A stretch of 64,000 bases of DNA from Euglena gracilis (GCA_039621445.1 CP154954.1:29273411-29337410); one strand, 5' to 3'; positions 1 through 27,897 are shown, numbered from the stretch's first letter. Program-made: numbers and translations. The notes: generated from the letters alone by a model not told the origin.

Positions 1-1017
1 CATTCCGGTTGGATTGTAGCCATACCGTGTTTTGATAAAGGATTAACGGGTGCAAAAATGGCCAAGGAAATGCTTAAGTCCCAATGGAAACCCTTTGGAG
101 TCCCGTCAATAATTTCAAGTGACCAAGGGAGCCATTTTGTCAACACATGGTGGCAAACCATGTGTTCGCTCATGGGAATTCGGCAAGCATTTTCCCAAGC
201 TTACCACCACCAAGCAAATGGGAGGGTGGAGAGAGCCGGCCAACAAATTATGGAAATCCTCCGAAAGTTGTTTGTGGAGGAAAAAATGAATTGGGTGGAA
301 GCACTTCCCCAAGTTTTGGATCGCATTCATGACACCAAGGGGGAGAGTGGTTTTAGTCCTCACGAAATTTTGTTTGGAAGGGATAGACCCATTGGTGGAA
401 TACCCTATCAAACACCGAAGGAGTGTGAGGACGCTCAAAGTTTCTTTCGCCGAATAAAGGAGGTGGATGAGAAAGTTGCTAAGATTCTCAACCACTCACA
501 TTGGGTGCAAGCGAGTTGGGTCAACCAAGGGAGGAGGGAGTTGGTACCCTTAAAATTGGGAACCCAAGTGTGGTATAGGAGACCCGAAGGATCCGGAGAA
601 AAATTGGATTCCAGATGGATTGGACCTGGGATTATTAAAGCCCGGGAGGGGGAGAGGAGTTATATTATTGAAATTAAACCCGGGATGGAAATGAAGGTTC
701 ATCGTAGTTTCCTTAAGGAATACAAATAGCCTGAAGTTCTTGGTGAGGGGGTGCCTTTGTTCTTTTTCAAGAGGACCGAAAAAGAAGAGGAAGCAATGCC
801 TGATGAGTGGGAGGTGGAAAAAATTCTGAACCACCGAAAGAAGGGGGGAACCTGGGAATTCCTCACGAGATGGGTTGGTTACAACGAGGGGGAGGAAACC
901 TGGGAGCCGGTGGGGAATTTCATACACCGATTTAGTGAGGAGTTGGTGAGGTATTGCACGAAGAAAAACCTAGGGGTCGATTTGATGTCCGAATTGAAAA
1001 AATCTTTGAAACCCTAG
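1..1017 (+). pseudogene. Ty3/Gypsy (chromovirus-type) pol 3' end: integrase core plus chromodomain, with one in-frame stop
   Basis: Frame is open from base 1 (HSGWIVAIP). It contains ISSDQGSHF, AYHHQANGRVER, a GPY/F-like WIGPG and the chromodomain EWEVEKILNHR...RWVGY...TWEP. TAG at 727-729 splits two same-frame ORFs (58-729, 751-1017). Confidence 0.93.
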
Positions 1018-2399
1018 TGAGCCGAAAGTTGAAGGCTCGGTTCATTTTGCTTTTTTTTTAATCGGGGAGCCCAAATGTTTGAGGCTCTTGCTTTGAATTG
1101 GGCCAAGTGCTGTTTCGGCAAGTTATTTGTGTGCTTGTGCATTGCTTATGTGCATCATACCTTTTGTTTTTGACTCCATGATTCTCATATGTTTTGATTT
1201 TTCGAGCATGCGATGAATTTGATTTCTCTCTCTCTCTCTCCTTCTCTCTCCATGCATATTTTGTTCTTGCTCTTCTCTTTCGCTTTGCTCTCACAGGTTT
1301 TGAGGACTTGGAGGCTCCAAGCACACCCAAGGGAGCCCCAAGGGAAAAGTGCGAGCGCACCACCGCAGGAAGGAGGCGAGCATCCTACGCAAGCAAGGAG
1401 ACGAGACAAGGAGACGAGACAAGGAGACGAGACAAGGAGATGAGATGAGGAGACGAGACGAGGAGATGAAGCCTTTTTACCCAATCAACCGAATACACCA
1501 CCACCCAACTTGTCCATAGCCCAGCCCCGTTGGGGCTTGCCTCACTATAAACGGCCCCATCACCCGCTACCCGAGCCCCGAACCCCACTGCCTATATTCC
1601 TCACCCCAACCTGACCTCACCTTCCCATACCGTGAATGGAAAGGGGGACCGAAGGATTTGGATTTTTTTTACCAAGGTCGAGCCATAGCCCCTGTGTAGG
1701 AGAGCGGCCCAGAATGTTTGGAGTTTTGATGATTTGTTTGGATTCCGAGCCATTGGTGGATGTTGCAAGGGGGAAGAAGCCTCACCTTCACCGTGGATGC
1801 GCGGGGGGGGGGGGGGGGCTGAATTTTCTCCGATTTTTGGGTGAGCTCCCTCCAAACGGGTTTCGGTCGAGGGGGGGGGGCGCCCATTCCCATGCCCGTG
1901 TCCAAAGGATTGTGGAATGGAGACCGCCTGATTTTTCAGTTGATGTATGATACACCACCGGACGACCGGAAGAGGTGCTTGCAGACTTGCCGAGCAGTCT
2001 GCGAAAACATGGTCAGCACAGGCAACCACAGGTCACCTTGGGTTTGGGCAGGGTTGGTTGCAATGCTCGTCCAGAAAAGGTTCCCTGGGGAAGTTTGTCT
2101 TTGTAGTCTGCTAGTCCATGGTGCGTCTTGGAAATTGCATTGCCTGGTGTCCTGTGAATGGTTATTTTTTGAAGTGAATTTCACCGGATTCATTCATGGA
2201 GGGTTGGTTGCATTTCGGTTGTCCACCAAGATTGTGTAGTGCAAGAGAACGTCCAATCCAAGGATTCGAGTTTTTTGGTGAGCCATGAGAAGGTAACAAG
2301 ACTGGGCAAATTTCACGATTTTTTATTTTTTCAGAAAATTTCAAAATTTTGAATATTTTCAATATTTTCATTGAAAAAATGGGAGAATCCTAATGGGAA

Positions 2400-4840
2400 A
2401 TGCCCAAGCGGCCTATTCATACTTATGGGAACGATTTCGATGTTCTCACAAGGGACAAGCAATTGAAGGCGCTGACTGTAAGATGCAAGCACTGCCCCTG
2501 GGAAAGTGTCTTCAATATTACAAGAATGAAGGAGCACTTGGCATCAAAACACGCAGAGGATGGTCCCAAGACAAAAAAACAATGCACGTTGTTTGCATAC
2601 GCCGACCGATCATTTGGCCCCTCCCAGCAGGAGCGAACAACCAGCCTTCTGGTGATGCTGCAAGTGCACTATGGGCTGTCATTCTCTGCCGTGACCAGTA
2701 TGGAAATGCAGAATCTTCTGAAGTATTTGCGGCCAGAGGTTCACGTGCCGTCCCGAAGGACATTGCAAAGACGAGTGGACGACCCGTACCACAGCCTGAA
2801 GGACAAAGTGTATTCCTTTCTACAACAAGTGGAGAGTGTGTCTTTGATGATCGATGGGTGGGAGGACCACAACAAGTGTGAGTGCATCGCCGTGACTGCC
2901 AAGCCACTGAATCCATCCCTGCATCCTGTGCTGATCCGCTTCCATCGTATGACCACCCGTGCGACAACAGAACAGTTGCATGAATGTTTGGAGGTTTGCC
3001 ATTTGTAATCGGCCCATCCAATTTGTCATCTTTGGTCAGGGCTGTGTACGAGATCTTCTGTCTGCGGGTTGCAAAGTGGTGGCTGCATGTGCTGACAACG
3101 CCCGCAACATCCAAGGAGCTGTGAACACGCTCAACAACAGCCACAGTTGTATTCCACTCAACTGCTGGGCCCACGCAGCAGAGCTGTTGAGCAGGGACCT
3201 GGCCAGCCTGTGGCCAGACTGTTATGAAAAAGCCCACCAGCTGGAGAGATATTTCCATGACCACCATTACCAAAGGTGTGATGAAGGCCGCATGCAGAAT
3301 GTGTTCGATTGCTTCACAGGCAGTGCTACATTGAATAAACGCAGAGGACTGGGGGCACCATCTTGACACATCCGGGCTCGACCCGATGGAGCAGCCAGCA
3401 CAACATGTTGAAAAGTGTTCACAAGAACAGAGCCACCATTGAGAACGTGCTCACCCGTCTCAGAAGGGAGAAGGTCCGTGACCCAGAGTTCATCGCCCTT
3501 GCTTGGGTGTGGAGCAACGCAGTATGGGACGACTGGGAACACCTGCTTCGGCAAGGGCTTCAAATGGAAGTTTTACTTTTTTTGTTTCAATGTATGAAGC
3601 CCTGAATTAGACTGACAGAGCATGTGACCGAGTTCATTGTGTGGCTCCAAGGAGATGATGCCACGTTGGGGGCTGTGATGCAGCGTTACATCGACTTACG
3701 CGGACGGTTATGAGGTGTCTTTGTAGTACGTTTCTGTCTGTGGTGTGCATGGCCCCATCCTTCATCGAGGAACGCGACACGTTCTTCTTTCGGGACTGGA
3801 GCTGCCTGGCGTACATCATGGACCCGAACTACAGAGGTGCCCAGTTGGGTCCTCATCCAGGCACTTCCACATTGTCATCCCCATTGTCCTGAATTTGCAC
3901 TTAAATTTTTTTTGATTTCAGGCAGGGAAGCGGTTTCTGAAGCTGTGTCGTAATTTTTACTCTTTTTGTTTTGCATTCTTTTTGCCTTGCATGACCTCTG
4001 CTGGTCTGCTGTTGGGGGAACCTGAGCCTGACGGCTGAGGGACACATTGGCCTTCTTCCATGCGACGGCCTGGAAGACCGTCATGGGCGACGCCGAAGCG
4101 CCCACTGCTGACGACATGTGCGACTATTTGAAGCTGGATGGAGTTTACTCTGTACCTCCTGGAATGCAGACCAGGGGCTTTCAGTTAACAGTTGACCCCC
4201 TAGCCTCTGCCGTAAAATTTGCAGCCCCCCCCCCCAGCCTCAGCCGTAAAATTTGCAGCCCCCCCCCCCAGCCTCAGCCGTAAAGTTAGCAGCCCCCCCC
4301 CAGCCTCAGGCGTAAAGTTAGCAACCCCCCCCCAGCCTCAGCCGTAAAGTTAGCAGCCCCCCCCCCCCAGCCTCAGCCGTAAAGTTAGCAGCCCCTCCCC
4401 CCCCAGCCTCAGCCGTAAAGTTAGCAGCCCCCCCCCCAGCCTCCGCCTTAAAGTTAGCAGCCCCCCCCCAGCCTCAGCCGTAAAGTTAGCAGCCCCCCCC
4501 CCCCAGCCTCAGCCGTAAAGTTAGCAGCCCCCCCCCCCCAGCCTCAGCCGTAAAGTTAGCATCCCCCCCCCAGCCTCAGCCGTAAAGTTAGCAGCCCCCC
4601 CCCCCAGCCTCAGCCGTAAAGTTAGCAGCCCCCCCCCCATCCTCGGCCATAAACGCTCTGCTGCAGACTGAGGGTTTGTCGGGGTACAAGTGGTGGGGCC
4701 TCTACAAGGACACGAACCTCAGTGCATTTGGCGCACTGCTGTGTGGTATACCGGCATCAGCAGCAGCAGTTGAAAGAGTCTGGTCTGTGGCAGGCCATCA
4801 GGTGGGTGATCGTGAATCGTTGGCAGGCCAGTCAAGGTAG
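2400..4840 (+). pseudogene. hAT-superfamily transposase with BED finger; intron-containing, disrupted
   Basis: Motifs: BED finger CKHC...HLASKH, MIDGWED, ADNARN, CWAH, TRWSS and C-terminal WW...LLCGIPASAAAVERVWS. GT-AG introns 2994-3039 and 3276-3319 join the frames exactly. A TAA follows soon after intron 2, and a MITE interrupts at 4172-4660. Confidence 0.9.
4172..4660. mobile_element. hAT-type MITE filled with a ~30-bp minisatellite (CAGCCTCAGCCGTAAAGTTAGCAGCCCn)
   Basis: Imperfect TIR CAGGGGCTTT / AAACGCTCTG. 8-bp TSD ATGCAGAC (4164-4171) / CTGCAGAC (4661-4668). Removal restores the transposase frame PGMQT|EGLSGYKWW. Confidence 0.8.
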
Positions 4841-6124: not shown

Positions 6125-6218
6125 GATCACGAGATCCTTTGGATCGAGAGATCCGCGTATCCCGCGAGATGCTTAATTCACCCACCCTACCACACAGGTA
6201 CTCAAACTTGAAAGGCAG
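6125..6218 (+). repeat. Split direct repeat A1 (left terminus)
   Basis: GATCACGAGATCC...GCTTAATTCACCCACCCTACCACACAGGTACTCAAACTTGAAAGGCAG recurs at 15907-15982 and 25758-25833. A1 has an 18-bp insert. Confidence 0.9.
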
Positions 6219-6222
6219 AGCA

Positions 6223-9200
6223 ATGGCGACTGGCAGGTTGTCCAAGTGGTTTCCTGGGAGAAGATTTGGATTTATTTACTTCGAGAACGAGAACCGTGAA
6301 GTTTTTGCACATGAGAGTGAGTTCATCTCAAAGGGAGCTGGCCAGCTGCAAGTGTCCGTTGGGACGGAGGTGGAGTGCTACATCATCGAAGGCCCTGATG
6401 GCAAGGACTCCTGCAAGGAAATCAGGCCGTCTGGTGGCGGATATTTCACCAAGGCCGAGGACAACAAAAAGAGGAAGCGAGAGCCAACCGATGAGAGGAG
6501 AGGAGGACCAGGACGAGGACGACGACAAGAGGAGGCGGCGGTAAGCACCCGGCAGCTCGAACAACTGGTTGCGTCTGCGGTGCAGCGGCTCTTGCCGGCC
6601 CCTCCTGGGGTTCTTTTGCCCTCCCCTCCCGGGGGTTTTGTCCCACAATCTGCGCCATCTGTGGCCCACCCCTTTCCCAACCCACCCCCCTGCACCCCCC
6701 AGGGGGTCCACATCCCATGGGACACCCTTATCACACTCATTGCCAACCCGGGGCCGGCAGATCTGGCAGAAAACCCGCCCGACACAACCCCAGGGGACAC
6801 CAGATTTGACATTCCAATGCCAAATGCCCCCCCCATTCCCATCTCCAAAATGGGCCTCTCATCCCCATTTGGGTCCGAGATTTCGGGGGACCATGTCTCC
6901 ACATTTTCCTCCACCACTTTTCGGGCCGCAAAAACCACACAACACTTGGAATCTGTGGCTCGGTTTCATTCGGGACTGAAAAAACTCAGCCCCGACCCCG
7001 CAACATTGTTTTCTCTGAAAATGGCCTGGACCTCCTCTTGGTTGGACTTAATTACCGGCCCCGGCAGTCCGGCCGCCTTCCGGGCCCGCCCCCCGCGGGA
7101 CCACGCTGACCCTGAGACAAAGCAGCGACTGTATGGCCTGTGGAGGTCTTTGTGCATGCTGGGCAGGAGTCCCTTTCTGGGAGGAAAGCGTGGTGCAGGG
7201 TTCTCCAAGACGCTCTTTGGGCTTCTCCTTGCGACTTTGGCCACGGTGGCCGTTGTCGTGCAAGGAATCACCAGCGACAGTCGCCTGGATTGGCACAGGG
7301 CAGGCCTGTGTGCGGCAGACGGGAGATCCTACGGAGGTTGGTAGCCGGCGCGTAGTACCAAGCCGAGTATCGCTCGAGTAGCTTATTCGGTAAGGTGCTG
7401 GGCTCGCACGCGGGAGGTCGTGGGTTCGAGACCCAGGTCCCGCTGTGTGAATCCTGGTCGATACCGTACGGGCAGAGGGCATACCGCGGGGATCGACCGG
7501 CGCGCGTAACTGCGCCCAAGGACGAGACACTGGTTGGCCGGACCTTGGGTGTAGTTCCCCGCCTGAGGGCGTGCCACGGCAAGCAGTATGAGCTGCCCCG
7601 TGGCCGTCCAACGGCGGGTGGTGACAACCAACGTATACATGGTAGCAGAGGGAACCCGTCTAATGCCACACGAACCGGGAAGTCAGAGCCTGACCCCACG
7701 GCGCCCGGAAGGCGGAGGCGGACGCGCCGAGTCTAGGGCGACTGAAACTCCTACACCGTTCCAAAGCCTCAAGCCGATGCTAAGGGGGACGCTCCAAGGC
7801 GGCAGAGCCCGTGGAAGTCGACAACACGTAAACTGCCGGCAATAGCAAACCCGAGCTGCAGGGGTCGGCAGCCTGGTGACGCAGTACTCGTGAGAAGCAC
7901 TCAGCCAACTAGGGCCGTGTGAGGCATAACCCGAGCTGCAGGGGCCACGGCCATAGTGACGCAGTGGGCTAGTGTAGTAAGGCTCTTGGGAGGGGAGTGT
8001 GTGCGGCAGACGGGAGATCCTACGGAGGTTGGTAGCCGGCGCGTAGTACCAAGCCGAGTATCGCTCGAGTAGCTTATTCGGTAAGGTGCTGGGCTCGCAC
8101 GCGGGAGGTCGTGGGTTCGAGACCCAGGTCCCGCTGTGTGAGTCCTGGTCGATCCCGTACGGGCAGAGGGCATACCGCGGGGATCGACCGGCGCGCGTAA
8201 CTGCGCCCAAGGACGAGACACTGGTTGGCCGGACCTTGGGTGTAGTTCCCCGCCTGAGGGCGTGCCACGGCAAGCAGTATGAGCTGCCCCGTGGCCGTCC
8301 AACGGCGGGTGGTGACAACCAACGTATACAGGCCCCCTCCCTCATGACCAACTCCAGATCTGCGCCGCCGGCCAGAAAACTCACGAGGCCCCCCCTGCTC
8401 GACCGACCACCTGCTGCCTCCTCACACACAGAGAACGGAGGCCTCACCTGAGAGAGAAGGACATGGACACGCTCTTCACGACCACACAACACTGGGCAAT
8501 CGGACTATGTTGCCTTCGCATCTCAGGGGATGTCCACCCACATCCGGGTCCTGGGGTACCAGCTGACATCTACATGCTGTTGCCACATCACCTACGCACC
8601 GCTTGCGATGCCTTGCAGCTACCTCTCCCGGCATGGGACCCCTTCGCCTCTCCGCAGAACAACCTGGCCGCTCGTTACTTTTCGATGTCAGACAACGCGT
8701 GTGGGAGGGCGGCTGGCAACAGCAAAAATTAGGAAGAGCAAAGCCTAATTCACAGAAAAAATTACTATTTCACTTTGTAGGTGGCAAAAAGCTGAATACC
8801 TTGTTCAAAACGTCTTGGAAGACTTTGTTTTGACGTCTTGCATTGGGTTTTACTGGTGGAAGTTCCGGCGGAAGGATTACAAAAAAGTGGTATTTTGAAG
8901 CGCTGAAGCCAGAAAATCCAAGTGAATTCCCAGAAAAGAGACATCTCAGAAAACTCAAGGTATTCTGGCTTGCCAAGGCATGTTGTTCAAGTATCAGTGA
9001 ATGTACCATCGAAGAAGGACAATCAGAAGTGAAATGCAGCTGGAGCCAGCAGCAGGAGGAGGAGGAGGAAGAACAACAACCTCCAGAACCTGCAGTAAGC
9101 TGTGGTATGTACTGCTGATGGACACCCTCTTCATGCTGCAGATTGGTGATGTATAATTTGCAGCTGGGTGTTGGATGGTTGAAAAACATTTGGAACAGAT

Positions 9201-12200
9201 TCTGTGACAGTTTTCTGCAGTTTGTGCTTTTGTTTGGGTTGGGAGTCCGTTGCTGGAAAGTTCGGGCCACGTAGCCCCTTTTGCCACACCATTTATGGGT
9301 TGGGAGGCACTTTCCAAAAGCAAATTTGGGCCCAGCAGCCCCAGGACACACCAGGCAAAATGCACATGTCATTTCCAGTCCCAAAGTTCTGTACTGCTGT
9401 GATAGGTTGGGAGGCAAATGCTTTAGCATTTTTGGGCCCAGCAGCCCCTTATGCCACACCACACACTGTGCAACTCAGTTTCAATTGTCCATTTGTGTTG
9501 TAAATCCTTTGGGCAGTCAATGGTACCTGATTCGGCTCGGATCAATGCACACAATTTTGGGCAGAAGAAAGTTCAACATGTCAATGTCAAAAAAGGATTT
9601 GCAGAATCAATTGTCAGAATTTCAATGTCAATTTTGGATTTTTGAAAATGTTGGTTCCTGGCCCTGCCATTTTGTGGGTGCCGCTTCAAGGGGGCCCTGC
9701 CCTGGCATTCACATTTGGCAACCCGAGCCGGCCTGGGCTTCTGGGGGGCCTTCTGGGATAACTTGTGGTTTCTGGGGGGAAACCGCAGGTTCCTCAGATG
9801 GCGTCCCAAATGGGCCCAGGAGTGGGCAAGGGGGGGTCATGGAGGATTTGTGTTGTATTGGCTGGGATTGCTGGCAGCAGCTGCTTTACGCTTAATCGGT
9901 TTTGTTGTACATTACAGCCCCCCCCCCTGTGTGTGGCGGACAGCCTTTTCAAGATCAATCTCCAGAAATCTCTGAATTAGGCATTGCCAGAAAAAAGGGT
10001 TCAGACCAAAATCTTAAGCTGGGAATTCTGTGTTTCATTCTGTATTTCAGTGGCAGCCTATGGCAAACAGTGTATCAGTTTGCTTGGACTTCATTGGCAT
10101 TGGCAAACATCTTCAAGATTTGTTCCCCTGCTGTGCAAAAGATTTTGAAAACTCCAGTGACGCAGTGGGAAAATGCCAGTGGAAAAGCCCAAGTTGGCAG
10201 TAGGAGACTGTCCAGCATTGCACATTACAGGTTGGCCTGGGCCAGAAGTTGGTCACCCCAAGTGTCATTGGACAAGGGCTGTCACAACACACTGAGCCGA
10301 GGACCCACCCTCACACAAACTGATATGAGCTTTGTCCAGTACAAACGATCCTGTTGGGCCACGAAGGGGATTGGCACTCAGATGGTGATCTGGTGGACTG
10401 TCATTACATTATCATTGGTGGACCACTGGCTGCAGCTGATGGCAGTACTTTGCACTGTACATTGCTGCAGATGTCATTGAAGATTGCATGTCATTGTCAT
10501 TGAACTGGATATGGTGATGAGCCGTGAGGCACGTACAACAGAATCGAGCACCGGTGGAGCATCGAGATGAGCCGTGAGGCACGTACTGGAGAAGGAGTTG
10601 GTGGTCATTTGTTGCCCTGGGCAGCCCAGTTGTTGGCATTGCCATGGGTTGTGGGTTAACCGATAAAACCCTCTGCCGTGAAGTTTTGGCATTGATGTAA
10701 TGCTGTCTGCTGGAGGTGTTCTGCGGCATTAGATGTCACGGTTTGATCGTTTTCTCCGTCTTCGTCTTCTGCGTGTTTCTGTCTCTTCTCCATGTTCTGC
10801 GAGGGGCTAAGTGGCTCGTCTGTCCGCTGTGCTGCGAATGTCTGGGCAATTGCGCAGCAATTGTTCAGGAAGGGGTGTGTGTGTGTGGCGGACAGCCTTT
10901 TCAAGATCAATCTCCAGAAATCTCTGAATTAGGCATTGCCAGAAAAAAGGGTTCAGACCAAAATCTTAAGCTGGGAATTCTGTGTTTCATTCTGTATTTC
11001 AGTGGCAGCCTATGGCAAACAGTGTATCAGTTTGCTTGGACTTCATTGGCATTGGCAAACATCTTCAAGATTTGTTGCCCTGCTGTGCAAAAGATTTTGA
11101 AAACTCCAGTGACGCAGTGGGAAAATGCCAGTGGAAAAGCCCAAGTTGGCAGTAGGAGACTGTCCAGCATTGCACATTACAGGTTGGCCTGGGCCAGAAG
11201 TTGGTCACCCCAAGTGTCATTGGACAAGGGCTGTCACAACACACTGAGCCGAGGACCCACCCTCACACCCCCTAAAAAAAAAAACCACCCCCAGACCAAA
11301 ATCCCAGATCAATGCCAGCCGCCCAACTTCGTGGGTTGTCGGCATTGGCCTGGGAGGGGTGTGTGGGAGGGCGGCTGGCAACAGCAAAAATTAGGAAGAG
11401 CAAAGCCTAATTCACAGAAAAAATTGCCATTTCACTTTGTAGGTGGCAAAAAGCTGAATACCTTGTTCAAAACGTCTTGGAAGACTTTGTTTTGATGCCT
11501 TGCATTGGGTTTTACTGGTGGAAGTTCCGGCGGAAGGATTACAAAAAAGTGGTATTTTGAAGCGCTGAAGCCAGAAAATCCAAGTGAATTCCCAGAAAAG
11601 AGACATCTCAGAAAACTCGCGCTCTCACAGCCATGGGAAGAAGGACCACTTCTGTGGGCCAATCCGCCCTTCGAATTAAGACACCAGGCGCTCCAAAAAG
11701 CCCTCGATTCCTCCGTGTGCGTGCTATTCTTATGGCCTCTCTTTAGGCCGGACGACCTCCAGATGATGGCTTCTTTTTCCTCCCGGATTTGGCTCGCCCC
11801 TCCTGTCCCTCTTTTCTCCAGAGGACACGGATTGCCCCCCTTCCCAACCCCGCCGTGGCGCCGCGGGCTCTTCCTCTTGGATTTCCGGAGCCGGGTCACA
11901 GGCTGGATTCATGATTGCTGCCAAGATGGGGATGTGGAGTCCAATCCCGGACCTTCCGCCGGGTCCCTGGCACTCACCGTCTCCTTTCAAGAGTTCCTCG
12001 GACCTTTCCTCACCACCTTCGTAGCTTCAGTCGACAAGACGGAGCTGGCACTCTCCACCATCAACCTGCGGGCCCGCGCTCGCACGTGGCCGTCTGGCTG
12101 GCACTCCCCCTTCTTCCCCACCGATTTCCAAGGCTCCGAGGACGACGTCTTCGGTTCTTTGGCCGCGTACGAGCTGTATGCCAACGCCGTCCTACTCCCA

Positions 12201-12257
12201 CACAACGATGCTTTATGTTGGACGCCGGCCGAACCCCGAACTTCTCGCCCTCCGTAA
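6223..12257 (+). CDS. Reconstructed ORF1 polyprotein (6223-7306 + 8335-8699 + 11622-12257): cold-shock domain, 2A-like motif, N6-adenine MTase, 2A motif; interrupted in this copy
   Basis: CSD motifs MATGRLSKWF...RFGFI...EVFAHESEF. GDVHPHPGP at 8526-8552. MTase WDPFASPQN..RYFS..DNA|LSQPW...WANPPF. GDVESNPGP at 11928-11954. Both junctions are in frame once each insertion plus one TSD copy is removed. Confidence 0.85.
7307..8330 (+). mobile_element. TRIM (non-autonomous LTR element) with tRNA-derived sequence in its 333-bp LTRs
   Basis: LTRs 7307-7639 and 7998-8330 (TGT...ACA). PBS TGGTAGCAGAG at 7640-7650 (initiator tRNA-Met 3' complement). PPT GGGAGGGGAG at 7988-7997. TSD GGCC at 7303-7306 and 8331-8334. 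Confidence 0.92.
7372..7444 (+). promoter_or_regulatory. tRNA-derived Pol III internal promoter (A and B boxes) in the 5' LTR; second copy at 8063-8135
   Basis: A box TAGCTTATTCGG (7379-7390) and B box GGTTCGAGACC (7423-7433) at tRNA spacing. The loop CTCGCAC is Ala-CGC-like. Acceptor and anticodon stems pair poorly. Confidence 0.75.
8700..11617 (+). mobile_element. Non-autonomous LTR element inserted in the MTase domain
   Basis: 256-bp direct repeats at 8700-8955 and 11362-11617 (about 4 differences by eye). TSD CGCG at 8696-8699 and 11618-11621. Purine tract GGGAGGGG precedes the 3' repeat. No credible coding domain. Confidence 0.85.
9928..11267 (+). mobile_element. Second TRIM-like LTR element nested in the previous one
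   Basis: 388-bp TG...CA repeats at 9928-10315 and 10880-11267. AGGAAGGGG precedes the 3' repeat. C runs on both flanks are a possible TSD. Confidence 0.75.
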
Positions 12258-12792
12258 ACGGGTCAAGGAGTTGGAGTTGGCCCGCACCCCGCCAACTCTC
12301 GAGGAACTCGTGGGCGAGTGTTCTCCTCTGACCGTCTCACGACTGCGCCTCCTCCCCTCACTCCCTGGCTGGTCCACAGACTTGCTGACGGCTTTCGAGA
12401 AGCGAGCACACCAAAAATGCTCCGACACTGAATGTTGCGACTCATTATGGGCTGCCACTGTCCGCGCTATTTTTCGACAAAACAGCTCCACGTCTTCCTC
12501 CTCCTCACCGGGCGCAACCTCCGTCTCCCGCTCCGCCACAAGGCGTCCTCTCGAGATGTCCCTCTCCACCCTTAAGGAAAGGGGTGGCCGGGTCGAGACG
12601 GAGGTGGGACCCAACGGGGTCGTCACGTGGGCTTTCCTCGGGGGAAAGAAGTTCTTCCTTTCAAAGAAGGGCGCCTTGTGGGACACATCCGAACCCCCTC
12701 CCGCAGCCTGCTTCACCTGTGGCAACCAGCATTGGTACTGGGAGTGTGAAGCACAGGGGACCAACGCCAACCCAGCCATCTCCCCCCCCTGA
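12178..12792 (+). CDS. Gag-like protein with C-terminal zinc knuckle
   Basis: Coiled-coil-like LLALRKRVKELELAR. CFTCGNQHWYWEC (C-x2-C-x3-H-x4-C) at 12709-12747. Lies just upstream of YR/RT. Confidence 0.7.
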   Translation: MPTPSYSHTTMLYVGRRPNPELLALRKRVKELELARTPPTLEELVGECSPLTVSRLRLLPSLPGWSTDLLTAFEKRAHQKCSDTECCDSLWAATVRAIFRQNSSTSSSSSPGATSVSRSATRRPLEMSLSTLKERGGRVETEVGPNGVVTWAFLGGKKFFLSKKGALWDTSEPPPAACFTCGNQHWYWECEAQGTNANPAISPP

Positions 12793-13950
12793 CGCCCCAG
12801 GCCGGGGGAGAGGGGAAATGAGCAGCACCGCCACCCCTTCCCCACACTCCCCGCAACGGCCGCCAACCCCCTTCCCCCTCCTCCCCTCTGCCCCCTGCGC
12901 TCCGGACACCTCTTCCTCACCAGGGCTGTGCACCGCCGCACCTCAGGCATCATCCCAGATTTCCGCACCGCTCTCACCTGGTCCCTTGCCCCCAGCACCC
13001 TCTCCTCCTACACCTCCCGCATCGCCACCTTTCTCCAATGGTGGGAGGACCACGCCTCGAGTTGGTCTCTACAGCCTGAGCTGGTCGAAAAGTTTCTTCT
13101 CCAACAATTGGTTGCAAGAACCGCGGCCATTACCCTCCGGGTTTTCCTTTCTGCCATCACCTTCCTGCGCTCCATTCGACTGTTCCCTTGGGACATTCCC
13201 CACGCCTGGTGGAGGGTGTCCAATGCAGCATCCAACTTGGCCCTCCGCCCATCCCGTCCCAGGACGTGGTTCTTGCTTCCGGACCTCTGCATCTGTGCCC
13301 GCGCCTGCCACACCACCGAACAAAAACGTTACCTCGCAGTTGTGGTCTTGGCCCTCATCACTGGTCTTCGCTTCAGCGAGGCCTCCCGCATTTGCCCAAA
13401 CGATTTCTCCTTCGACAACGGGTGTACATTCCGTTTCCACTGCGCCAAACGCCGACCCTCCTCTCCTCAATCCACCTCTCGCCCCCTTTCCCCCTGGGGT
13501 GCTGCATGGGCCCGTTACCTCACACTCACAGCTACAGGCCCCCCCGATAAGGCCTTCCTCCCTCCTGCCCAACTCCGGAACGGATTTTCCGAATTCACCA
13601 GGCCCCTGCTCCCACAACGGCACACCTTCCATGCCCTACGCCGGGCCAACGCCTACTACCTCTCCTCCTTGGGCCTTCCCACCGAGCACATCGGCGAATG
13701 GAGCCGATGGCGGTCCCCAGCGCTTGTTCGGCACTATGCCGGGCAACCGGCCGGTGCCTCCACCTCGGAGTTCTATACGGCTCCCTTTCCGCCGCTCGCC
13801 TTGTCCGACCTCTTCCCCGTCCGCTTCCTCGACTCAACCACAGCTTCCCTATGGGGAGCGCACCTCTCAACACCTGAACCGCAACTGCGCCTCCCTCCCG
13901 CACCAAAACCCAACAAACGGCGGCGGCGGTCCCGTGATTCGAATACCTAA
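12793..13950 (+). CDS. Tyrosine recombinase (no in-frame ATG; open from the Gag stop)
   Basis: LAPSTLSSY N-terminal motif. Catalytic set GLRFSE, CAKRR, HALRR, SRWRS, RHY. Confidence 0.92.
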   Translation, partial: RPRPGERGNEQHRHPFPTLPATAANPLPPPPLCPLRSGHLFLTRAVHRRTSGIIPDFRTALTWSLAPSTLSSYTSRIATFLQWWEDHASSWSLQPELVEKFLLQQLVARTAAITLRVFLSAITFLRSIRLFPWDIPHAWWRVSNAASNLALRPSRPRTWFLLPDLCICARACHTTEQKRYLAVVVLALITGLRFSEASRICPNDFSFDNGCTFRFHCAKRRPSSPQSTSRPLSPWGAAWARYLTLTATGPPDKAFLPPAQLRNGFSEFTRPLLPQRHTFHALRRANAYYLSSLGLPTEHIGEWSRWRSPALVRHYAGQPAGASTSEFYTAPFPPLALSDLFPVRFLDSTTASLWGAHLSTPEPQLRLPPAPKPNKRRRRSRDSNT

Positions 13951-15805
13951 TGGATGGTCCCGCGTGCGCTCGGTCATCTGGAACCTCGCCTGGACGATCT
14001 CTCGGAAACGCCTTCCGCGACCCACCACTAGAAACCGCCTCTTCCACGGCCTACGATTACTCCTAGCCGCAGCCTGGCAGCGGGCCGTCCAACTGAGCGA
14101 CCTCGCCGTTTGGCAGCGTGCCCTCCGTACTGTGAGCCTTCTGCCTACTATTCAGCTTCTTGACATTCTTGACTTTGATTACCACCCCTCAGCCCCAACC
14201 GCCCGTACCACCCGTGCCTCCCTGAACATGCCGATGACTTCCAAGGGGCTCGGGTCCCGTGGTTCCTTCCGCATCCCCACTAGCGTTTGGTCCGCCATTG
14301 TGCCCGCCTCTTTGCCCGCTAGTATAAAGGCTGCTGGTGCTGTCGAACCATTCTTGCCACACCCCCCAGATCGCTTTGCCTCAGCCATGCTGCAGCGCCT
14401 ACGAGCTGACGGCTTCCTCTTGGATTGTACGCACCTGCCCCCCAACGCCTCTTGCTTCTTACGCCCCAAATCCAACGAGAAGGCAGCCTTCATCGCTGAC
14501 CTGCGGGGAGTCAACACACTGAGCCCCTCCCCACTCCCACATTTCTCTCTACCCTCACTCCCTGAGGTTGCCACCGTTTTCTCCCGACAACCCTTCCGTT
14601 GGGGAACAGTCGTGGACCTCACCAACTTCTTCTGGTCCCTCCGTCTGCCCCCCTCTGCATCCGACTGCTTCCGGGTCGCGGGCTTGACGTGGGACAGTCT
14701 GCCTTTCGGCTGGAATCTTTCCCCGGCTCTGGCCCAGGCTACCTTGGGGCTCCTCCTGGACCAATTCCTCTTACAAGAGGGCCTCCTCCTCAAGTTCGGC
14801 CATGGCGTTCTCCTGTTCCACTATTATGATGACATCCTCCTTCTCGCCCTTCACCAGCATGAGTGCGCCCACTCCACCGACAGCCTAGTCGCCTTCCTAC
14901 GTCACAACGAACTGCTGGTTTCCCCGAAAAGTACGCTATGCCCCCAGCAGTCTCTAACCTGGCTCGGTAAAACACTCCACCTGCAGGGCGGACGGCTGCC
15001 CCCATCTGTGGCTAACTCCGAAGGCCTGCTCCTCCGCCTCACGGCACTCGCGCTCCTGCTCACATTCTGCCCTCTCACCCCGCGCACCATCGAGCGCATT
15101 ACAGGCTTCGCCATGTGGTGCCACCGCCCCCGACTGGGTGCCACACTCTTCCTCTTCGCCTTCTACCGTCTCCTATACTCCCACAGACGGTTTTGGCAAC
15201 GTTGCCCCCTGGCCGCTGTCCGCGCCTTCGCTGACCTCACCGCTCTTGCCCACCTACCGTGGAGCCCGCCACCGTCCGAGGAACCGGAAACCTGCCCCAC
15301 CACCCACACGATTGCCGGGGACGCCGCCCTTATTCGGGGTGGCTACCGGGTAGGACTCTCCCTTTCCCCCGATCAACACCGCTTGCTCCGCTGCCCCCCA
15401 GAGATCCTCACACAGCAGCAAGCTGAATTGTTCGCCTTGGACGCCGCTACACGTCTCGCGGTCCGTCTCGGTTGGTCCTCCCTCTACTTCCATGGTGACT
15501 ACTGGGGAGCCCTCTGTGCCTTACACACCCTCCGCGCCCCCCTACATTGCCCCCAATACGTGCGGACGCTCCGACGTATCTTCAACCGCCTCCTCTGGTC
15601 AGGCCTATCCGTCCACCTGTTCTGGATCCCCTCGGCTTACCAACCAGGGGACCCCATCAGCCGTATCCACTTCCCCTGTAGCACGGCCCTCCTGCGGAAG
15701 GCCATCTTGTGTGCCCAGCGCCGGTTCACAGATCTCGAGCACAACACATTACCCTCGCCTCCCCTGCCCGTCGGCACAACTTGCATCACCGCCCATCCAC
15801 GCTAG
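12818..15805 (+). CDS. Reverse transcriptase-RNase H (DIRS/YR type); N-terminal third overlaps YR in the +1 frame
   Basis: RT motifs FIADLRGVN, VDLTNFFW, LPFGWNLSP, YYDDILL, WLG. RNase H motifs AGDAA, QQAELFA, HGD, IPSAYQPGDPISR. Confidence 0.93.
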   Translation: MSSTATPSPHSPQRPPTPFPLLPSAPCAPDTSSSPGLCTAAPQASSQISAPLSPGPLPPAPSPPTPPASPPFSNGGRTTPRVGLYSLSWSKSFFSNNWLQEPRPLPSGFSFLPSPSCAPFDCSLGTFPTPGGGCPMQHPTWPSAHPVPGRGSCFRTSASVPAPATPPNKNVTSQLWSWPSSLVFASARPPAFAQTISPSTTGVHSVSTAPNADPPLLNPPLAPFPPGVLHGPVTSHSQLQAPPIRPSSLLPNSGTDFPNSPGPCSHNGTPSMPYAGPTPTTSPPWAFPPSTSANGADGGPQRLFGTMPGNRPVPPPRSSIRLPFRRSPCPTSSPSASSTQPQLPYGERTSQHLNRNCASLPHQNPTNGGGGPVIRIPNGWSRVRSVIWNLAWTISRKRLPRPTTRNRLFHGLRLLLAAAWQRAVQLSDLAVWQRALRTVSLLPTIQLLDILDFDYHPSAPTARTTRASLNMPMTSKGLGSRGSFRIPTSVWSAIVPASLPASIKAAGAVEPFLPHPPDRFASAMLQRLRADGFLLDCTHLPPNASCFLRPKSNEKAAFIADLRGVNTLSPSPLPHFSLPSLPEVATVFSRQPFRWGTVVDLTNFFWSLRLPPSASDCFRVAGLTWDSLPFGWNLSPALAQATLGLLLDQFLLQEGLLLKFGHGVLLFHYYDDILLLALHQHECAHSTDSLVAFLRHNELLVSPKSTLCPQQSLTWLGKTLHLQGGRLPPSVANSEGLLLRLTALALLLTFCPLTPRTIERITGFAMWCHRPRLGATLFLFAFYRLLYSHRRFWQRCPLAAVRAFADLTALAHLPWSPPPSEEPETCPTTHTIAGDAALIRGGYRVGLSLSPDQHRLLRCPPEILTQQQAELFALDAATRLAVRLGWSSLYFHGDYWGALCALHTLRAPLHCPQYVRTLRRIFNRLLWSGLSVHLFWIPSAYQPGDPISRIHFPCSTALLRKAILCAQRRFTDLEHNTLPSPPLPVGTTCITAHPR

Positions 15806-15831
15806 ACGCGTCGGCGCGGCACCGCACCGCG

Positions 15832-16166
15832 GGTCACGTGTGCAGACCTGATGGTTCTGTCTCGCGTCTCGCTTGTGCTTGCATGTAAGGTAACCAAAAA
15901 GTAGCGGATCACGAGATCCAAAGGATCGAGAGATGCTTAATTCACCCACCCTACCACACAGGTACTCAAACTTGAAAGGCAGCCCTCCCACCCGCCCACA
16001 ACACCACCTTACCCTCCAAACTGCCCGCCACACCTGATGTACATCGGCGTTTGAACAGTACCGTATTACATTTTTACTGGTCGTCCAGGTCACGTGTGCA
16101 GACCTGATGGTTCTGTCTCGCGTCTCGCTTGTGCTTGCATGTAAGGTAACCAAAAAGTAGCGGATC
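15832..16166 (+). repeat. Right terminus B1-A2-spacer-B2
   Basis: 79-bp B repeats at 15832-15910 and 16088-16166 flank A2 (15907-15982) and a 105-bp spacer. Confidence 0.92.
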
Positions 16167-17413
16167 TATAGGAAAAGCCTAATTTGAGGCTCCAATTCAG
16201 CACAATTTGCTTCCGCAGACTTTTGTGGGTTTCTTTGTTGCATACAATTGAGAATTGAAGTCCTCAAGAATTATTTCATTGAAGAATTGTCATTTTTGAG
16301 AATTTCAAGTTCAAAGGTCAGGTCCCACCTTTCCTCATTGACGGTGTGTCATTGTTGCCCTTTACCACCATTTCAGTGAACAAAACACCACCCTTATCCA
16401 TTCTCAATGTTTTGCATGCCGGAAGAAAGGGGGAGTGACATGGCCTCATGGGGATCAAAGTTTGGAGAAGCATTTTCATTGGAGCGGAATTTTGATTTTG
16501 TACAAGATTTCCACGAAAAAGCTAATTCGATCCTACGCACCCCCCTCTGGGCGGGGGGTATACCAGTGGGCGAAACGGGGGGTGGCCTGAGCCCTCCACC
16601 ACCCGGAAAAACACTGGGCCCTGGCCAGGGAACGGCAGCCCCAGGGGTGGGTGACGGGCAGGAGTCAGCCGGCCAGGGGGCTGGGGTTTTCTGTCCGACA
16701 CCCGCAGGGGGGGCGCCCGGGGTAGACACACAGAAGGGGGGAAAACAAAAAAAGAAAGTTGAACCAAAGTAAATGAAATTGAAGAAAAAAAGTAAATCCC
16801 AAAACGGAATTTAAGGGAATTTATTTTCAAGGAAAATGTGCAAACAAGGGAAAATTTTTAAAACCATAACGTAAAGCCCCCCCCCCCAATTCTCACCACC
16901 CTTGCAGCCCCACCCCCCCCAAATCTTGACCAACCCATGAAGGCCCCCCAATTTTTTCCAAAAGAAGGGCACACAAAAAAAAACAAATACAATTAGTCAC
17001 CAAAAAAACAAAGAGGGTATCGGGGCGTTGTCGAACCTCGTGCTTCACAAAAGAAAACATTTCCTCAATGGCGTTCAATTTTGAAAAGGGTTTGACGTGC
17101 CACATGCCCCCCCCCCAAATTGAGAACGGCTTTGTCAAACCCTTGTCGTGGAGAATTAGGGGCAATAAACAGATGGCGGTGGCCAAAGGGGGGAGAAGGG
17201 TTTGAAGCCACGGCTGGATAGAGGTAGAGGTAGAGGTGAAAGTCCTCTACCTCTATCTGACCCACCTCTACCTCTACCTATACCTCTATGTCACCTCTAT
17301 GTCCACAATAAGGGCCACAAAAGGCTCCAAATGCCTCAAACTTGGCAAATTAGCGTCTCAACACAGTTTATTTAGGTTCGGAATGAGAAAAAAAAAATGC
17401 AGATGGGTGGCTT

Positions 17414-17829
17414 CTATACACAAATTGTGGCTGAGCCCAGATTTCAGCCTGAAAACGTGTTCAGCCAGGGGGCCCCCGAAGGGGGCCCCCTGAACACGTT
17501 TTCAGGCTGAAATCTGGGCTCAGCCACAATTTGTTTAAAACGTGTTCAGAGCCCGCCAAATGAAATTCGTGGTCATGATTCACGCAAGGGGTCAAAAACG
17601 CGAATTTGTGAAATTCGGACCCAAAAAACGGCGCCCGCACTGAAAACGTGCCTGAACACAGATGCCTTCATTGAAAACGTGTCATTGCCACAAATGCCCT
17701 CACTGAAAACGTGCCTGAACACAGATGCCTTCACTGAAAACGTGTCATTGCCACAAATGCCCTCACTGAAAACGTGTTCATGACCACGAATTTTAGGGCA
17801 GGCATTTGGCGGGCTGAACACGTTTTTAA
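17414..17829 (-). mobile_element. Helentron/DINE-1-like non-autonomous element, family Y (short form; duplicate at 27265-27680)
   Basis: CTATAC end, long hairpin 17420-17534, subterminal inverted repeat TTAAAACGTGTTCAG..CCCGCCAAATG / CATTTGGCGGGCTGAACACGTTTTTAA, and central tandem repeats GCCCTCACTGAAAACGTG. Confidence 0.6.
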
Positions 17830-18547
17830 AAATTGCCATGAGAGATTTGTGACAAGAATGGCCAATTTCTGATTTTTCCCATAAAATTGCCTTCATTTGG
17901 CATAAATTTTCTTTGATAAGCCACTTTCCTTAAAAGTTTCACATTGAGGTGACATATAGTAGAGGTAGAGGTGACCTCTACCTTTACCTGTACCTCTACC
18001 TCTACCTCTACCTCTACCTCTATCGCCGGGATCGACCGGCGCGCGTAACTGCGCCCAAGGACGAGACACTGGTTGGCCGGACCTTGGGTGTAGTTCCCCG
18101 CCTGAGGGCGTGCCACGGCAAGCAGTATGAGCTGCCCCGTGGCCGTCCAACGGCGGGTGGTGACAACCAACGTATACAGGCCCCCTCCCTCATGACCAAC
18201 TCCAGATCTGCGCCGCCGGCCAGAAAACTCACGAGGCCCCCCCTGCTCGACCGACCACCTGCTGCCTCCTCACACACAGAGAACGGAGGCCTCACCTGAG
18301 AGAGAAGGACATGGACACGCTCTTCACGACCACACAACACTGGGCAATCGGACTATGTTGCCTTCGCATCTCAGGGGATGTCCACCCACATCCGGGTCCT
18401 GGGGTACCAGCTGACATCTACATGCTGTTGCCACATCACCTACGCACCGCTTGCGATGCCTTGCAGCTACCTCTCCCGGCATGGGACCCCTTCGCCTCTC
18501 CGCAGAACAACCTGGCCGCTCGTTACTTTTCGATGTCAGACAACGCG

Positions 18548-21464: not shown

Positions 21465-22026
21465 CGCGCTCTCACAGCCATGGGAAGAAGGACCACTTCT
21501 GTGGGCCAATCCGCCCTTCGAATTAAGACACCAGGCGCTCCAAAAAGCCCTCGATTCCTCCGTGTGCGTGCTATTCTTATGGCCTCTCTTTAGGCCGGAC
21601 GACCTCCAGATGATGGCTTCTTTTTCCTCCTCCGGATTTGGCTCGCCCCTCCTGTCCCTCTTTTCTCCAGAGGACACGGATTGCCCCCCTTCCCAACCCC
21701 GCCGTGGCGCCGCGGGCTCTTCCTCTTGGATTTCCGGAGCCGGGTCACAGGCTGGATTCATGATTGCTGCCAAGATGGGGATGTGGAGTCCAATCCCGGA
21801 CCTTCCGCCGGGTCCCTGGCACTCACCGTCTCCTTTCAAGAGTTCCTCGGACCTTTCCTCACCACCTTCGTAGCTTCAGTCGACAAGACGGAGCTGGCAC
21901 TCTCCACCATCAACCTGCGGGCCCGCGCTCGCACGTGGCCGTCTGGCTGGCACTCCCCCTTCTTCCCCACCGATTTCCAAGGCTCCGAGGACGACGTCTT
22001 CGGTTCTTTGGCCGCGTACGAGCTGT

Positions 22027-25000: not shown

Positions 25001-25656
25001 TCCTCTTCGCCTTCTACCGTCTCCTATACTCCCACAGACGGTTTTGGCAACGTTGCCCCCTGGCCGCTGTCCGCGCCTTCGCTGACCTCACCGCTCTTGC
25101 CCACCTACCGTGGAGCCCGCCACCGTCCGAGGAACCGGAAACCTGCCCCACCACCCACACGATTGCCGGGGACGCCGCCCTTATTCGGGGTGGCTACCAG
25201 GTAGGACTCTCCCTTTCCCCCGATCAACACCGCTTGCTCCGCTGCCCCCCAGAGATCCTCACACAGCAGCAAGCTGAATTGTTCGCCTTGGACGCCGCTA
25301 CACGTCTCGCGGTCCGTCTCGGTTGGTCCTCCCTCTACTTCCATGGTGACTACTGGGGAGCCCTCTGTGCCTTACACACCCTCCGCGCCCCCCTACATTG
25401 CCCCCAATACGTGCGGACGCTCCGACGTATCTTCAACCGCCTCCTCTGGTCAGGCCTATCCGTCCACCTGTTCTGGATCCCCTCGGCTTACCAACCAGGG
25501 GACCCCATCAGCCGTATCCACTTCCCCTGTAGCACGGCCCTCCTGCGGAAGGCCATCTTGTGTGCCCAGCGCCGGTTCACAGATCTCGAGCACAACACAT
25601 TACCCTCGCCTCCCCTGCCCGTCGGCACAACTTGCATCACCGCCCATCCACGCTAG
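22027..25656 (+). pseudogene. Duplicate gag / YR (to 23802) / RT-RNase H, with a 1-bp frameshift near 24920
   Basis: Same motifs as copy 1. RT-RH is split into ORFs 22433-25204 and 24964-25656. The B1-A2-B2 end is at 25683-26017. Confidence 0.9.
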
Positions 25657-27059: not shown

Positions 27060-27897
27060 CACGGCTGGATAGAGGTAGAGGTAGAGGTGAAAGTCCTCTA
27101 CCTCTATCTGACCCACCTCTACCTCTACCTATACCTCTATGTCACCTCTATGTCCACAATAAGGGCCACAAAAGGCTCCAAATGCCTCAAACTTGGCAAA
27201 TTAGCGTCTCAACACAGTTTATTTAGGTTCGGAATGAGAAAAAAAAAATGCAGATGGGTGGCTTCTATACACAAATTGTGGCTGAGCCCAGATTTCAGCC
27301 TGAAAACGTGTTCAGCCAGGGGGCCCCCGAAGGGGGCCCCCTGAACACGTTTTCAGGCTGAAATCTGGGCTCAGCCACAATTTGTTTAAAACGTGTTCAG
27401 AGCCCGCCAAATGAAATTCGTGGTCATGATTCACGCAAGGGGTCAAAAACGCGAATTTGTGAAATTCGGACCCAAAAAACGGCGCCCGCACTGAAAACGT
27501 GCCTGAACACAGATGCCTTCATTGAAAACGTGTCATTGCCACAAATGCCCTCACTGAAAACGTGCCTGAACACAGATGCCTTCACTGAAAACGTGTCATT
27601 GCCACAAATGCCCTCACTGAAAACGTGTTCATGACCACGAATTTTAGGGCAGGCATTTGGCGGGCTGAACACGTTTTTAAAAATTGCCATGAGAGATTTG
27701 TGACAAGAATGGCCAATTTCTGATTTTTCCCATAAAATTGCCTTCATTTGGCATAAATTTTCTTTGATAAGCCACTTTCCTTAAAAGTTTCACATTGAGG
27801 TGACATATAGTAGAGGTAGAGGTGACCTCTACCTTTACCTGTACCTCTACCTCTACCTCTACCTCTACCTCTATCCCTCTACCTCTATCCAGCCCTG
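27060..27897. mobile_element. TIR MITE with (TAGAGG)n/(CTCTAC)n subterminal repeats; truncated copy at 17209-18024
   Basis: TIR CACGGCTGGATAGAGGTAGAGG / CCTCTACCTCTATCCAGCCCTG. 7-bp TSD TTGAAGC at 27053-27059 and 27898-27904. Confidence 0.85.

Follow-up and report, generated by a model that had tools for sequence, protein, structure and literature searches.

A Dam-like methyltransferase flanked by 2A-type motifs in the probable gag reading frame of a DIRS-order retrotransposon of Euglena gracilis

Results

Organisation of the element

A stretch of 64,000 nt from Euglena gracilis (GCA_039621445.1 CP154954.1:29273411-29337410) was analysed over its whole length and is referred to as the window. 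It harbours, at 6125-16166, a tyrosine recombinase (YR) retrotransposon which we consider likely to be a DIRS-order element with a Dam-like methyltransferase inside its first open reading frame (ORF1), between 2A sites at which the products would be split by ribosomal skipping. The features of this element are the following:

6125-16166, plus strand: whole YR retrotransposon, 10,042 nt with both nested insertions counted, 6,092 nt after their removal
6125-6218, plus strand: terminal repeat A1, a direct copy of A2 found by repeat search, with four GATC sites at its start
6223-7306, plus strand: ORF1 piece A, with the ATG at 6223, a cold-shock domain (CSD), then a basic Arg/Gly-rich stretch, a conserved N-terminal region and a hydrophobic run
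7307-8334, plus strand: nested insertion 1, a miniature long terminal repeat (LTR) element of 1,023 nt (7307-8329), plus one copy of its AGGCC target duplication
8335-8699, plus strand: ORF1 piece B, with a linker, the degenerate first 2A motif and, from the Dam-like domain, the N-terminal third, which includes the DPFAS motif
8700-11621, plus strand: nested insertion 2, a non-autonomous LTR element of 2.9 kb (8700-11618), plus one copy of its target duplication
11622-12257, plus strand: ORF1 piece C, with the remaining Dam-like domain, the canonical 2A motif, the start of a Gag-like protein and a TAA at 12255-12257
12228-12240, plus strand: frameshift zone of the window copy, where relatives run through and the ORF1 and Gag-like frames part
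12238-12792, plus strand: remaining Gag-like protein, which includes a stretch resembling a coiled coil and a CX2CX3HX4C knuckle (12709-12747) and ends with a TGA at 12790-12792
12793-13950, plus strand: tyrosine recombinase ORF (Pfam Phage_integrase, E 2.5e-6, 12793-13947; Phage_int_SAM_1, E 6.8e-4)
12818-15805, plus strand: pol ORF, with reverse transcriptase (RT) at about 14510-14974 followed by an RNase H region, spanning the whole YR ORF in another frame
15832-16166, plus strand: 3' terminal repeats, namely B1 (15832-15910), A2 (15907-15982), a spacer and B2 (16088-16166)

The boundaries were obtained from empty sites. Joints running from 6124/6125 to 16165-16180 were present in contigs of X1, X10 and X15 and in a few X23 reads (X1 and X10 are public DNA runs used as contigs, X15 was likewise used as contigs, and X23 is an RNA run used as raw reads, of which about 5 in 100 were read). 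These joints remove 6125-16166 as one block, indicating that the bounds are those of a single element, and the presence of both RT and tyrosine recombinase within this block places the element in the DIRS order. Its genes follow the order gag, YR, pol, with pol overlapping the entire YR ORF. The YR ORF shares the frame of gag, from which it is separated only by a single TGA followed by C, and contains no Met codon, which suggests a Gag-YR fusion made by stop-codon readthrough, or some other unusual start. In pol, the region 13901-15802 gave RVT_1 (E 3.4e-11) as its only Pfam match. Neither a DDE integrase nor an aspartic protease was matched in Pfam by the six translated ORF pieces at E<=1, a missing match being weak evidence.

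The termini are split direct repeats in the arrangement A1 ... B1-A2 ... B2, of the kind known from PAT and Ngaro elements. A1 directly precedes the ATG of ORF1, B1 and B2 are 100% alike over their 79 nt in the repeat search, and B1 runs straight into A2, the junction expected of a circular or tandem form. The inverted terminal repeats and internal complementary region of the DIRS1 type were not found at these direct and split termini; the sole inverted pair near the element ends is 31 nt long and is located inside the GATC-rich repeat A. Eight of the 16 GATC sites of the element are in the terminal repeats (6125-6153, 15907-15927 and 16163), at the starts of A1 and A2 and the end of B2, and their total over the element is not raised (16 observed vs. 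20.5 expected). This cluster could be a target of the Dam-like enzyme or could be due to chance.

Uninterrupted copies of ORF1

In the window, ORF1 is interrupted by both nested insertions. Removal of 7307-8334 and 8700-11621 joins pieces A, B and C in frame (1084 + 365 + 636 = 2085 nt; 694 codons plus stop). Insertion 1 is bounded by LTRs at 7307-7639 and 7998-8330 (333 nt, 99.4% alike), and AGGCC is present at 7302-7306 and again at 8330-8334. Insertion 2, which splits the methyltransferase domain, has LTRs at 8699-8956 and 11361-11618 (258 nt, 98.4% alike) and is flanked by (C)GCG on both sides. One DNA contig each in X1 and X10 skipped from 7300 to 8329 (1028 nt), and one each skipped from 8695 to 11618 (2922 nt). 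Exactly these lengths are skipped, indicating that copies without the insertions exist; the joined ORF1 is the ancestral state.

A sequence-only reading of the window had proposed this excision, with each excised block consisting of an insertion and one copy of its target duplication. The coordinates proved exact, the LTR pairs and the duplicated flanks were seen, and the search for uninterrupted copies recovered precisely both joints in the X1 and X10 contigs. That reading had also recognised a YR retrotransposon, in agreement with the Phage_integrase and RVT_1 matches and the split direct repeats, and had placed a cold-shock domain at the beginning of the joined ORF and a hydrophobic run (TLFGLLLATLATVAVVV) behind it. 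The run was located in piece A, and the domain passed the Pfam cut-off (see below).

Additional observations were made on the two insertions. The word depth of insertion 1 in X1 was 185,000-292,000, compared to 1,000-3,400 for the YR element, and its LTR contains a tRNA-like stretch in which ARAGORN and Rfam call nothing. Insertion 2 is non-coding, carries an internal direct repeat of 389 nt, and is transcribed on both strands in X23 (depth up to about 715).

The Dam-like methyltransferase

Piece C was searched with HMMER against 1.84 billion representative proteins (E<=1e-3), and 44 relatives were obtained, 12 of them at E<=1e-10. The Dam family PF05869 was matched by all ten long relatives scanned (E<=5.8e-4), four of which exceeded the gathering cut-off of 28.1 bits (29.6-37.0 bits). 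Piece B took no part in this search. Its residues 56-121 align to residues 82-159 of the relative P0001, and residues 1-202 of piece C align to residues 160-356 of the same protein (E 2e-35); the two pieces abut in this manner (junction 159|160 on P0001) on 6/6 relatives aligned by both. A family hidden Markov model (HMM) was built from 22 relatives, with the window rows left out. It scored piece B at 42.9 bits (positions 19-89) and piece C at 175.0 bits (positions 91-290), and the two pieces joined with an X at the break were recognised as one domain of 227 bits (positions 21-290).

The motif NPPF (11661-11672) and the motif DPFAS are intact in the window. WxNPP[FWY] was found in 18 of the 44 relatives, and NPP[FW] and D-x-F-A are kept among them. 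The catalytic (D/N)PP(Y/F/W) motif is accompanied by a class I methyltransferase fold, the latter seen in the AlphaFold model of the relative P0013 (predicted local distance difference test, pLDDT, 82.9; predicted template modelling score, pTM, 0.75). In exhaustive structural alignment, the best match of this model was PCIF1/CAPAM, an adenosine-N6 methyltransferase (6irx_A; Z 10.3, root-mean-square deviation (rmsd) 2.9, 126 residues). T4 Dam (1q0s_A; Z 8.9, rmsd 2.6, 106 residues) and E. coli Dam (2ore_D; Z 8.7, rmsd 2.9, 109 residues) were also matched; rows at Z 8.7-9.3 are mutually tied, and PCIF1 is only about 1 to 1.5 higher. The model therefore points to a class I methyltransferase fold, with the substrate left undecided by the fold search.

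Other searches added little. The family profile gave only chance matches among PDB sequences (E 0.28 and 0.91), the ESM Atlas returned no usable match to P0001, and the word-based homologue search with piece C found none. Related loci comprised one metagenome contig of 1,779 nt and three viral-contig loci that match the 2A region only.

The position of the methyltransferase within the element was compared with that of the pol relatives. Eight were found, seven of them close (41-49% identical) and the eighth weak, and the YR-overlapping part of pol is conserved in P0046 and P0048. No Dam match was detected in the seven close relatives at E<=0.1, none of the eight carries a precomputed PF05869, and the eighth has RVT_1 as its only precomputed match. 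The absence of Dam from the seven pol relatives as well as from the window pol indicates that the relocation is a trait of the lineage and not damage to the window copy, and it bears out the sequence-only reading, according to which the methyltransferase does not stand behind RNase H here. In the pol relative P0047 (968 aa), a single ORF holds both frames, as residues 41-263 match the YR frame and residues 353-930 the pol frame; this joining is either a real difference or damage.

The 2A motifs

The first motif, GDVHPHPGP, is located at 8526-8552 and departs from the consensus D(V/I)ExNPGP, with H in place of E and of N. The second motif, GDVESNPGP (11928-11954), is a canonical D(V/I)ExNPGP. 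The first motif aligns with GDIEQNPGP of P0001, and it is in this sense that the earlier proposal of a methyltransferase bracketed by 2A motifs can be kept: the downstream motif is a canonical 2A, and the upstream one is only a degenerate form homologous to a true 2A. The enzyme that these motifs enclose does belong to the Dam PF05869 family, as had been suggested, when it is judged through its relatives. In the HMM check, made piece by piece, the CSD passes its cut-off and the split Dam pieces have no Pfam match of their own, while their relatives do.

All 18 relatives with WxNPP[FWY] have D[VI]xxNPGP 82-104 residues downstream of it. Nine of them also have an upstream D[VI]xxNPGP, at 68-89 residues before WxNPP[FWY] in eight and at 170 in one; the other nine are mostly truncated at the N-terminus. 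In an alignment of 32 rows, the only columns conserved at >=90% are G-D-x-E-x-N-P-G-P of the second 2A, and the family consensus is WxxxLxxDGDVExNPGP. In the P0001 model, both domains have a pLDDT above 90, compared to about 55 for the 2A stretch between them. Some of the 44 relatives match by the 2A motif alone, among them P0025, which is a picorna-like polyprotein, and P0020, an endonuclease protein of the APE type. These two were matched through the motif, which indicates that the motif is virus-like.

Published mutants bear on the degenerate first site. In the foot-and-mouth disease virus 2A, N16H lowers cleavage by 60-70% in vitro and is nevertheless viable (PMC5733566); in P2A, E14H is the one tolerated change among the conserved D12, E14 and N16 (10.64898/2026.09.24.754024). 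Because N16H is viable and E14H is tolerated in these other 2As, GDVHPHPGP may, by analogy, retain residual skipping activity.

A candidate for a third 2A at 6745-6756 (LITLIANPGP) was rejected: it is off consensus and P0016 has no NPGP upstream of Dam, which leaves chance or decay. Separately, in the relative P0040 (997 aa) the same Gag-like domain is preceded by three D(V/I)ExNPGP sites, and NPP[FWY] is absent. The slot bounded by 2A sites may carry other cargo in some lineages, such as that of P0040.

Continuity with the Gag-like protein

In the relatives, one ORF comprises a variable N-terminal part, 2A, Dam and 2A, followed by a Gag-like protein bearing a CX2CX3-4HX4C knuckle, and eight of the long relatives run through to this zinc knuckle. 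In the window, a frame-1 ORF (12025-12789) aligns from its residue 72 to residues 361-536 of P0001 (45% identical, E 7e-49). The hand-over takes place at residues 202-208 of piece C and residues 70-72 of the frame-1 ORF, with no residues lost, and the same change of frame was seen with other relatives. Since the alignment passes from piece C to the frame-1 ORF, the window copy has a frameshift at about 12228-12240. The Gag-like part also aligns to 15 further relatives.

The stop codon behind the frameshift differs between copies. Position 12255 is C, not T, in all covering contigs (four in X1 and one in X10), and T>C at this position eliminates the stop and leaves the gag-frame residue unchanged. 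The TAA at 12255 is private to the window copy and secondary to the frameshift. One X10 contig over 12170-12818 has two indels relative to the window (net +2 letters), which fits an open ORF1-gag frame and does not prove it.

The sequence-only reading had regarded the frame ending at 12257 as a separate 5' accessory ORF. This part of it had to be abandoned, as in the relatives a single ORF encodes the methyltransferase together with the second 2A and the Gag-like protein, and the window frame ends by frameshift; the supposed accessory ORF is, as far as these alignments tell, the first part of the gag ORF. With an X placed at each break, the ORF as a whole amounts to about 870 codons.

The cold-shock domain and the N-terminal region

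Residues 8-62 of piece A (nt 6244-6408) match the cold-shock domain PF00313 with 29.3 bits, compared to a cut-off of 27. Four solved cold-shock proteins were matched at E 0.002-0.01 in a single-sequence structure search, with the RNP-type motifs FGFI and VFAH aligned to them. Residues 30-321 of piece A align to residues 2-324 of P0016 (27.6% identical, E 3.8e-10), a relative that continues into Dam, 2A and Gag and has no upstream NPGP. Word depth was equal in the CSD part and in pol (29-44 vs. 17-44 in X10; 1338-3103 vs. 1033-3365 in X1), indicating that the CSD part belongs to the family in this host.

Copy variation and the remainder of the window

Synonymous differences between copies accounted for 6 of the 12 listed in ORF1 and 8 of the 11 listed in pol behind the YR overlap (14342-15500); these counts come from a small, pre-selected sample, with 343 further differences outside the listing. 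With two LTR insertions, a frameshift that cuts off gag and a decayed first 2A, the window copy of the element is, to judge by its sequence, dead.

A further feature partly repeats the element:

18021-27875, plus strand: tandem second copy of 8173-18024 (blastn, 99.86% identity over 9,859 nt)

This second copy repeats piece B, insertion 2, piece C and gag-YR-pol. The duplicated unit of 9.85 kb extends from a point within the 3' LTR of insertion 1 to about 1.85 kb past the element, so that the larger part of the interrupted element is found twice. The two copies differ in 14 alignment columns, mostly small indels, including a 2-nt indel in the methyltransferase region of copy 2. The tandem duplication is either real or an effect of the assembly.

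Remains of other retroelements are located at 1-729, 51882-53810 and 61720-63324 (-), namely an integrase core (rve, E 2.9e-8) and two reverse transcriptases (RVT_1, E 2.4e-22 and 1.9e-19). Short tandem arrays, with units that recur about every 32-35 nt, are present at 4196-4653, 33773-34005 and 42261-42493, and further repeated blocks are common to 33-36 kb and 42-44 kb. Rfam gave 0 matches and ARAGORN 0 tRNAs in the window. The whole window is a nest of transposons.

Discussion

Proposed expression of ORF1

In the intact form of the element, translation would start at the ATG at 6223, proceed through the whole of ORF1 and yield three proteins. The first would be an N-terminal protein of about 433 aa with the cold-shock (OB-fold) domain and the basic Arg/Gly-rich stretch, the second a free-standing Dam-like methyltransferase of about 160 aa, and the third a Gag-like protein of about 280 aa with the zinc-knuckle-like motif. 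They would be separated at D(V/I)ExNPG|P by co-translational StopGo/2A skipping, so that a single ORF would give rise to separate proteins in an element for which no protease domain was detected. The YR would follow in the gag frame behind the single TGA, with pol (RT/RNase H) overlapping in another frame. Skipping is thus predicted at the 2A sites from their motifs; the enzyme would presumably methylate adenine, perhaps on element cDNA or on genomic copies, and the CSD protein would bind element RNA or single-stranded cDNA. The recurrence of the arrangement among the relatives argues that the layout is a property of the family, not a quirk of one copy.

Alternative explanations

The structure of the frame itself could be read in other ways. 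It could be argued that CSD, 2A-like motif, methyltransferase and 2A constitute a separate 5' accessory ORF ending at 12257 and that gag is a distinct second ORF, as the window frame does stop at 12255-12257 and Met codons are present in the Gag-like frame upstream of its conserved part. This is very improbable in view of the relatives, in which methyltransferase, 2A and Gag share one ORF (eight long relatives reach the zinc knuckle) and to which the alignment switches frame at 12228-12240 with no residues lost. The C at 12255 in every covering contig, which abolishes the stop without changing the encoded residue in the gag frame, and the two indels of the X10 contig over 12170-12818 (net two letters) also speak against it. 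A chimeric origin of the joined ORF, either from a different element adjoining a DIRS-like one or from an artefact of the assembly, is hardly credible. The region is full of nested repeats and includes the 9.85-kb tandem duplication, but the empty-site contigs of three runs remove 6125-16166 whole, repeat A is found both next to the beginning of ORF1 and at the 3' end, depth is even over ORF1 and pol, and relatives join the methyltransferase to the same Gag that precedes the YR here.

Two other alternatives concern function. The NPGP motifs could be relics or linkers without skipping, ORF1 being made as a fusion or cut by a host protease. The first motif of the window copy has H at two conserved positions, and many retrotransposon 2A-like peptides lower protein abundance rather than skip (PMC13405545). 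We nevertheless regard this as unlikely, because no other block comes close to being invariant among relatives whose identity is otherwise 26-46%, and because the motif is always placed at domain borders, in stretches of low confidence in the predicted models, and fits D(V/I)ExNPGP, which was active in all eukaryotic systems tested (PMC12846837). A less remote alternative, which we still hold to be the less probable reading of the enzyme, is that the Dam-like domain is not a DNA-adenine enzyme and acts on RNA or RNA:DNA hybrids, or is only structural. In structure it comes closest to RNA adenosine-N6 methyltransferases, first PCIF1/CAPAM (Z 10.3) and then Erm and KsgA/Dim1 (Z of about 9), and no N6-methyladenine (6mA) was obtained from heterologous eukaryotic DAMs (10.64898/2026.05.21.726589). 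By contrast, the domain belongs by sequence to the Dam family PF05869, both T4 Dam and E. coli Dam are within about 1.5 Z of the top match, the rows at Z 8.7-9.3 being tied with one another, and NPP[FW] and D-x-F-A are kept.

Several observations weigh against a DIRS-order element with a 2A-bounded Dam-like enzyme and an N-terminal CSD protein. Pieces B and C and two sub-stretches had no Pfam match even at E up to 10, the domain being split by insertion 2, and the Dam membership of the window copy is deduced through its relatives. Foldseek searches of the PDB with the P0001 and P0013 models gave nothing at E<=1e-3; the best row was PCIF1/CAPAM at 3.2e-3, and nearly all of the weak rows were S-adenosylmethionine methyltransferases. 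We infer the links of the relatives to YR and RT, and the relatives may stem from few genomes. Expression of eukaryotic DAMs in dam- E. coli did not raise 6mA (10.64898/2026.05.21.726589). The first motif is off consensus at its E and N positions, and P0016 has no upstream NPGP at all. For the CSD region only this one relative was found, the word-based searches (pieces A and C) and the Atlas having given none, and one X1 contig and one X10 contig carry 22 other letters in place of 63 nt of the CSD. In the X23 RNA (about 5 in 100 reads read), depth was zero on the element bins from 6251-7303, 8357-8707 and 11867-15727; insertion 2 was well covered in the same run.

Comparison with known elements

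The element shares with DIRS1-like elements (Dictyostelium DIRS-1 type) the order gag-YR-pol, the large overlap of YR and pol, the set of RT, RNase H and YR, and a Dam-like methyltransferase (PMC3266345). It differs from them in its split direct repeats, as DIRS1 has inverted repeats and an internal complementary region, in the additional CSD protein, and in its length of 6.1 kb, slightly over the quoted figure of under 6 kb (PMC3266345). In DIRS1-like and PAT-like elements the methyltransferase is in pol, behind RNase H (PMC3266345), whereas here 2A sites enclose it within the gag ORF.

Split direct repeats at the termini are shared with PAT-like elements (PAT, TOC, kangaroo) and with Ngaro. 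Compared to the usual PAT order, the YR here precedes the RT and the methyltransferase is in ORF1. PAT elements are described as bounded by split direct repeats and built like DIRS1 except for their termini, with the methyltransferase consequently in pol (PMC3266345). Ngaro and VIPER, in contrast to the present element with its Dam-like domain in ORF1, have no methyltransferase (PMC3266345).

The motif D(V/I)ExNPGP at protein borders is common to RNA viruses and to APE-type non-LTR elements (L1Tc, Ingi, CR1 and L2, among others); here, unlike in these, two tandem sites bracket an enzyme in the gag ORF of a YR retrotransposon. DAM-carrying retrotransposons have been surveyed (10.64898/2026.05.21.726589), and they share with this element a Dam PF05869-type domain, the Asn-Pro-Pro pocket and DIRS-like carriers; the difference is that Dam is here a 2A-bounded module of the gag ORF. 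In that survey, DAM was extended to LTR elements, and 46% of eukaryotic DAM proteins were without transposon domains and were treated as fragments. Its main text does not mention NPGP, self-cleavage, cold shock, CSD or gag, and its supplements may differ.

Surveys of 2A peptides (PMC12338488, PMC13405545, PMC12846837, 10.64898/2026.09.24.754024) cover, in their available text, non-LTR elements and one Ty3-like case; DIRS and methyltransferase are absent from this text, and tyrosine recombinase is absent from that of PMC12338488 and PMC13405545. Full-text literature searches found no work joining DIRS or tyrosine recombinase with 2A terms, wider ones showed none for DIRS among the papers listed, although supplements may list DIRS-associated 2A peptides or domain architectures, and the papers listed on cold-shock domains together with retrotransposon, gag and ORF1 concerned host factors only. 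In the literature searched, no description was found of the layout CSD / 2A / Dam / 2A / Gag in a YR element. The chances seem evenly balanced that these elements constitute an undescribed YR lineage in which tandem 2A sites release a Dam-like methyltransferase and, in some members, a CSD binder from the gag ORF.

Biological significance

The available accounts of 2A skipping among retroelements deal almost exclusively with non-LTR elements; in the present case it would structure a DIRS-like element's gag ORF and would explain how an element with no detected protease domain adds separate accessory proteins. DIRS-1 amplifies via linear single-stranded cDNA (PMC7192593), and a CSD that binds single strands would, by analogy, fit such an intermediate. 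What the methyltransferase of DIRS elements does has yet to be established (PMC3266345), and a free enzyme of 160 aa would be a clean object for activity tests; the family also offers many natural 2A variants. Release as a free enzyme would offer one explanation for the many eukaryotic Dam-like proteins whose ORF shows no transposon domain. If the proposed lineage is real, it would represent the first known case of polyprotein processing without a protease in YR retroelements, the slot between the 2A sites would serve as a modular site for cargo, and part of the "orphan" DAM-only proteins in eukaryotic surveys would be explained.

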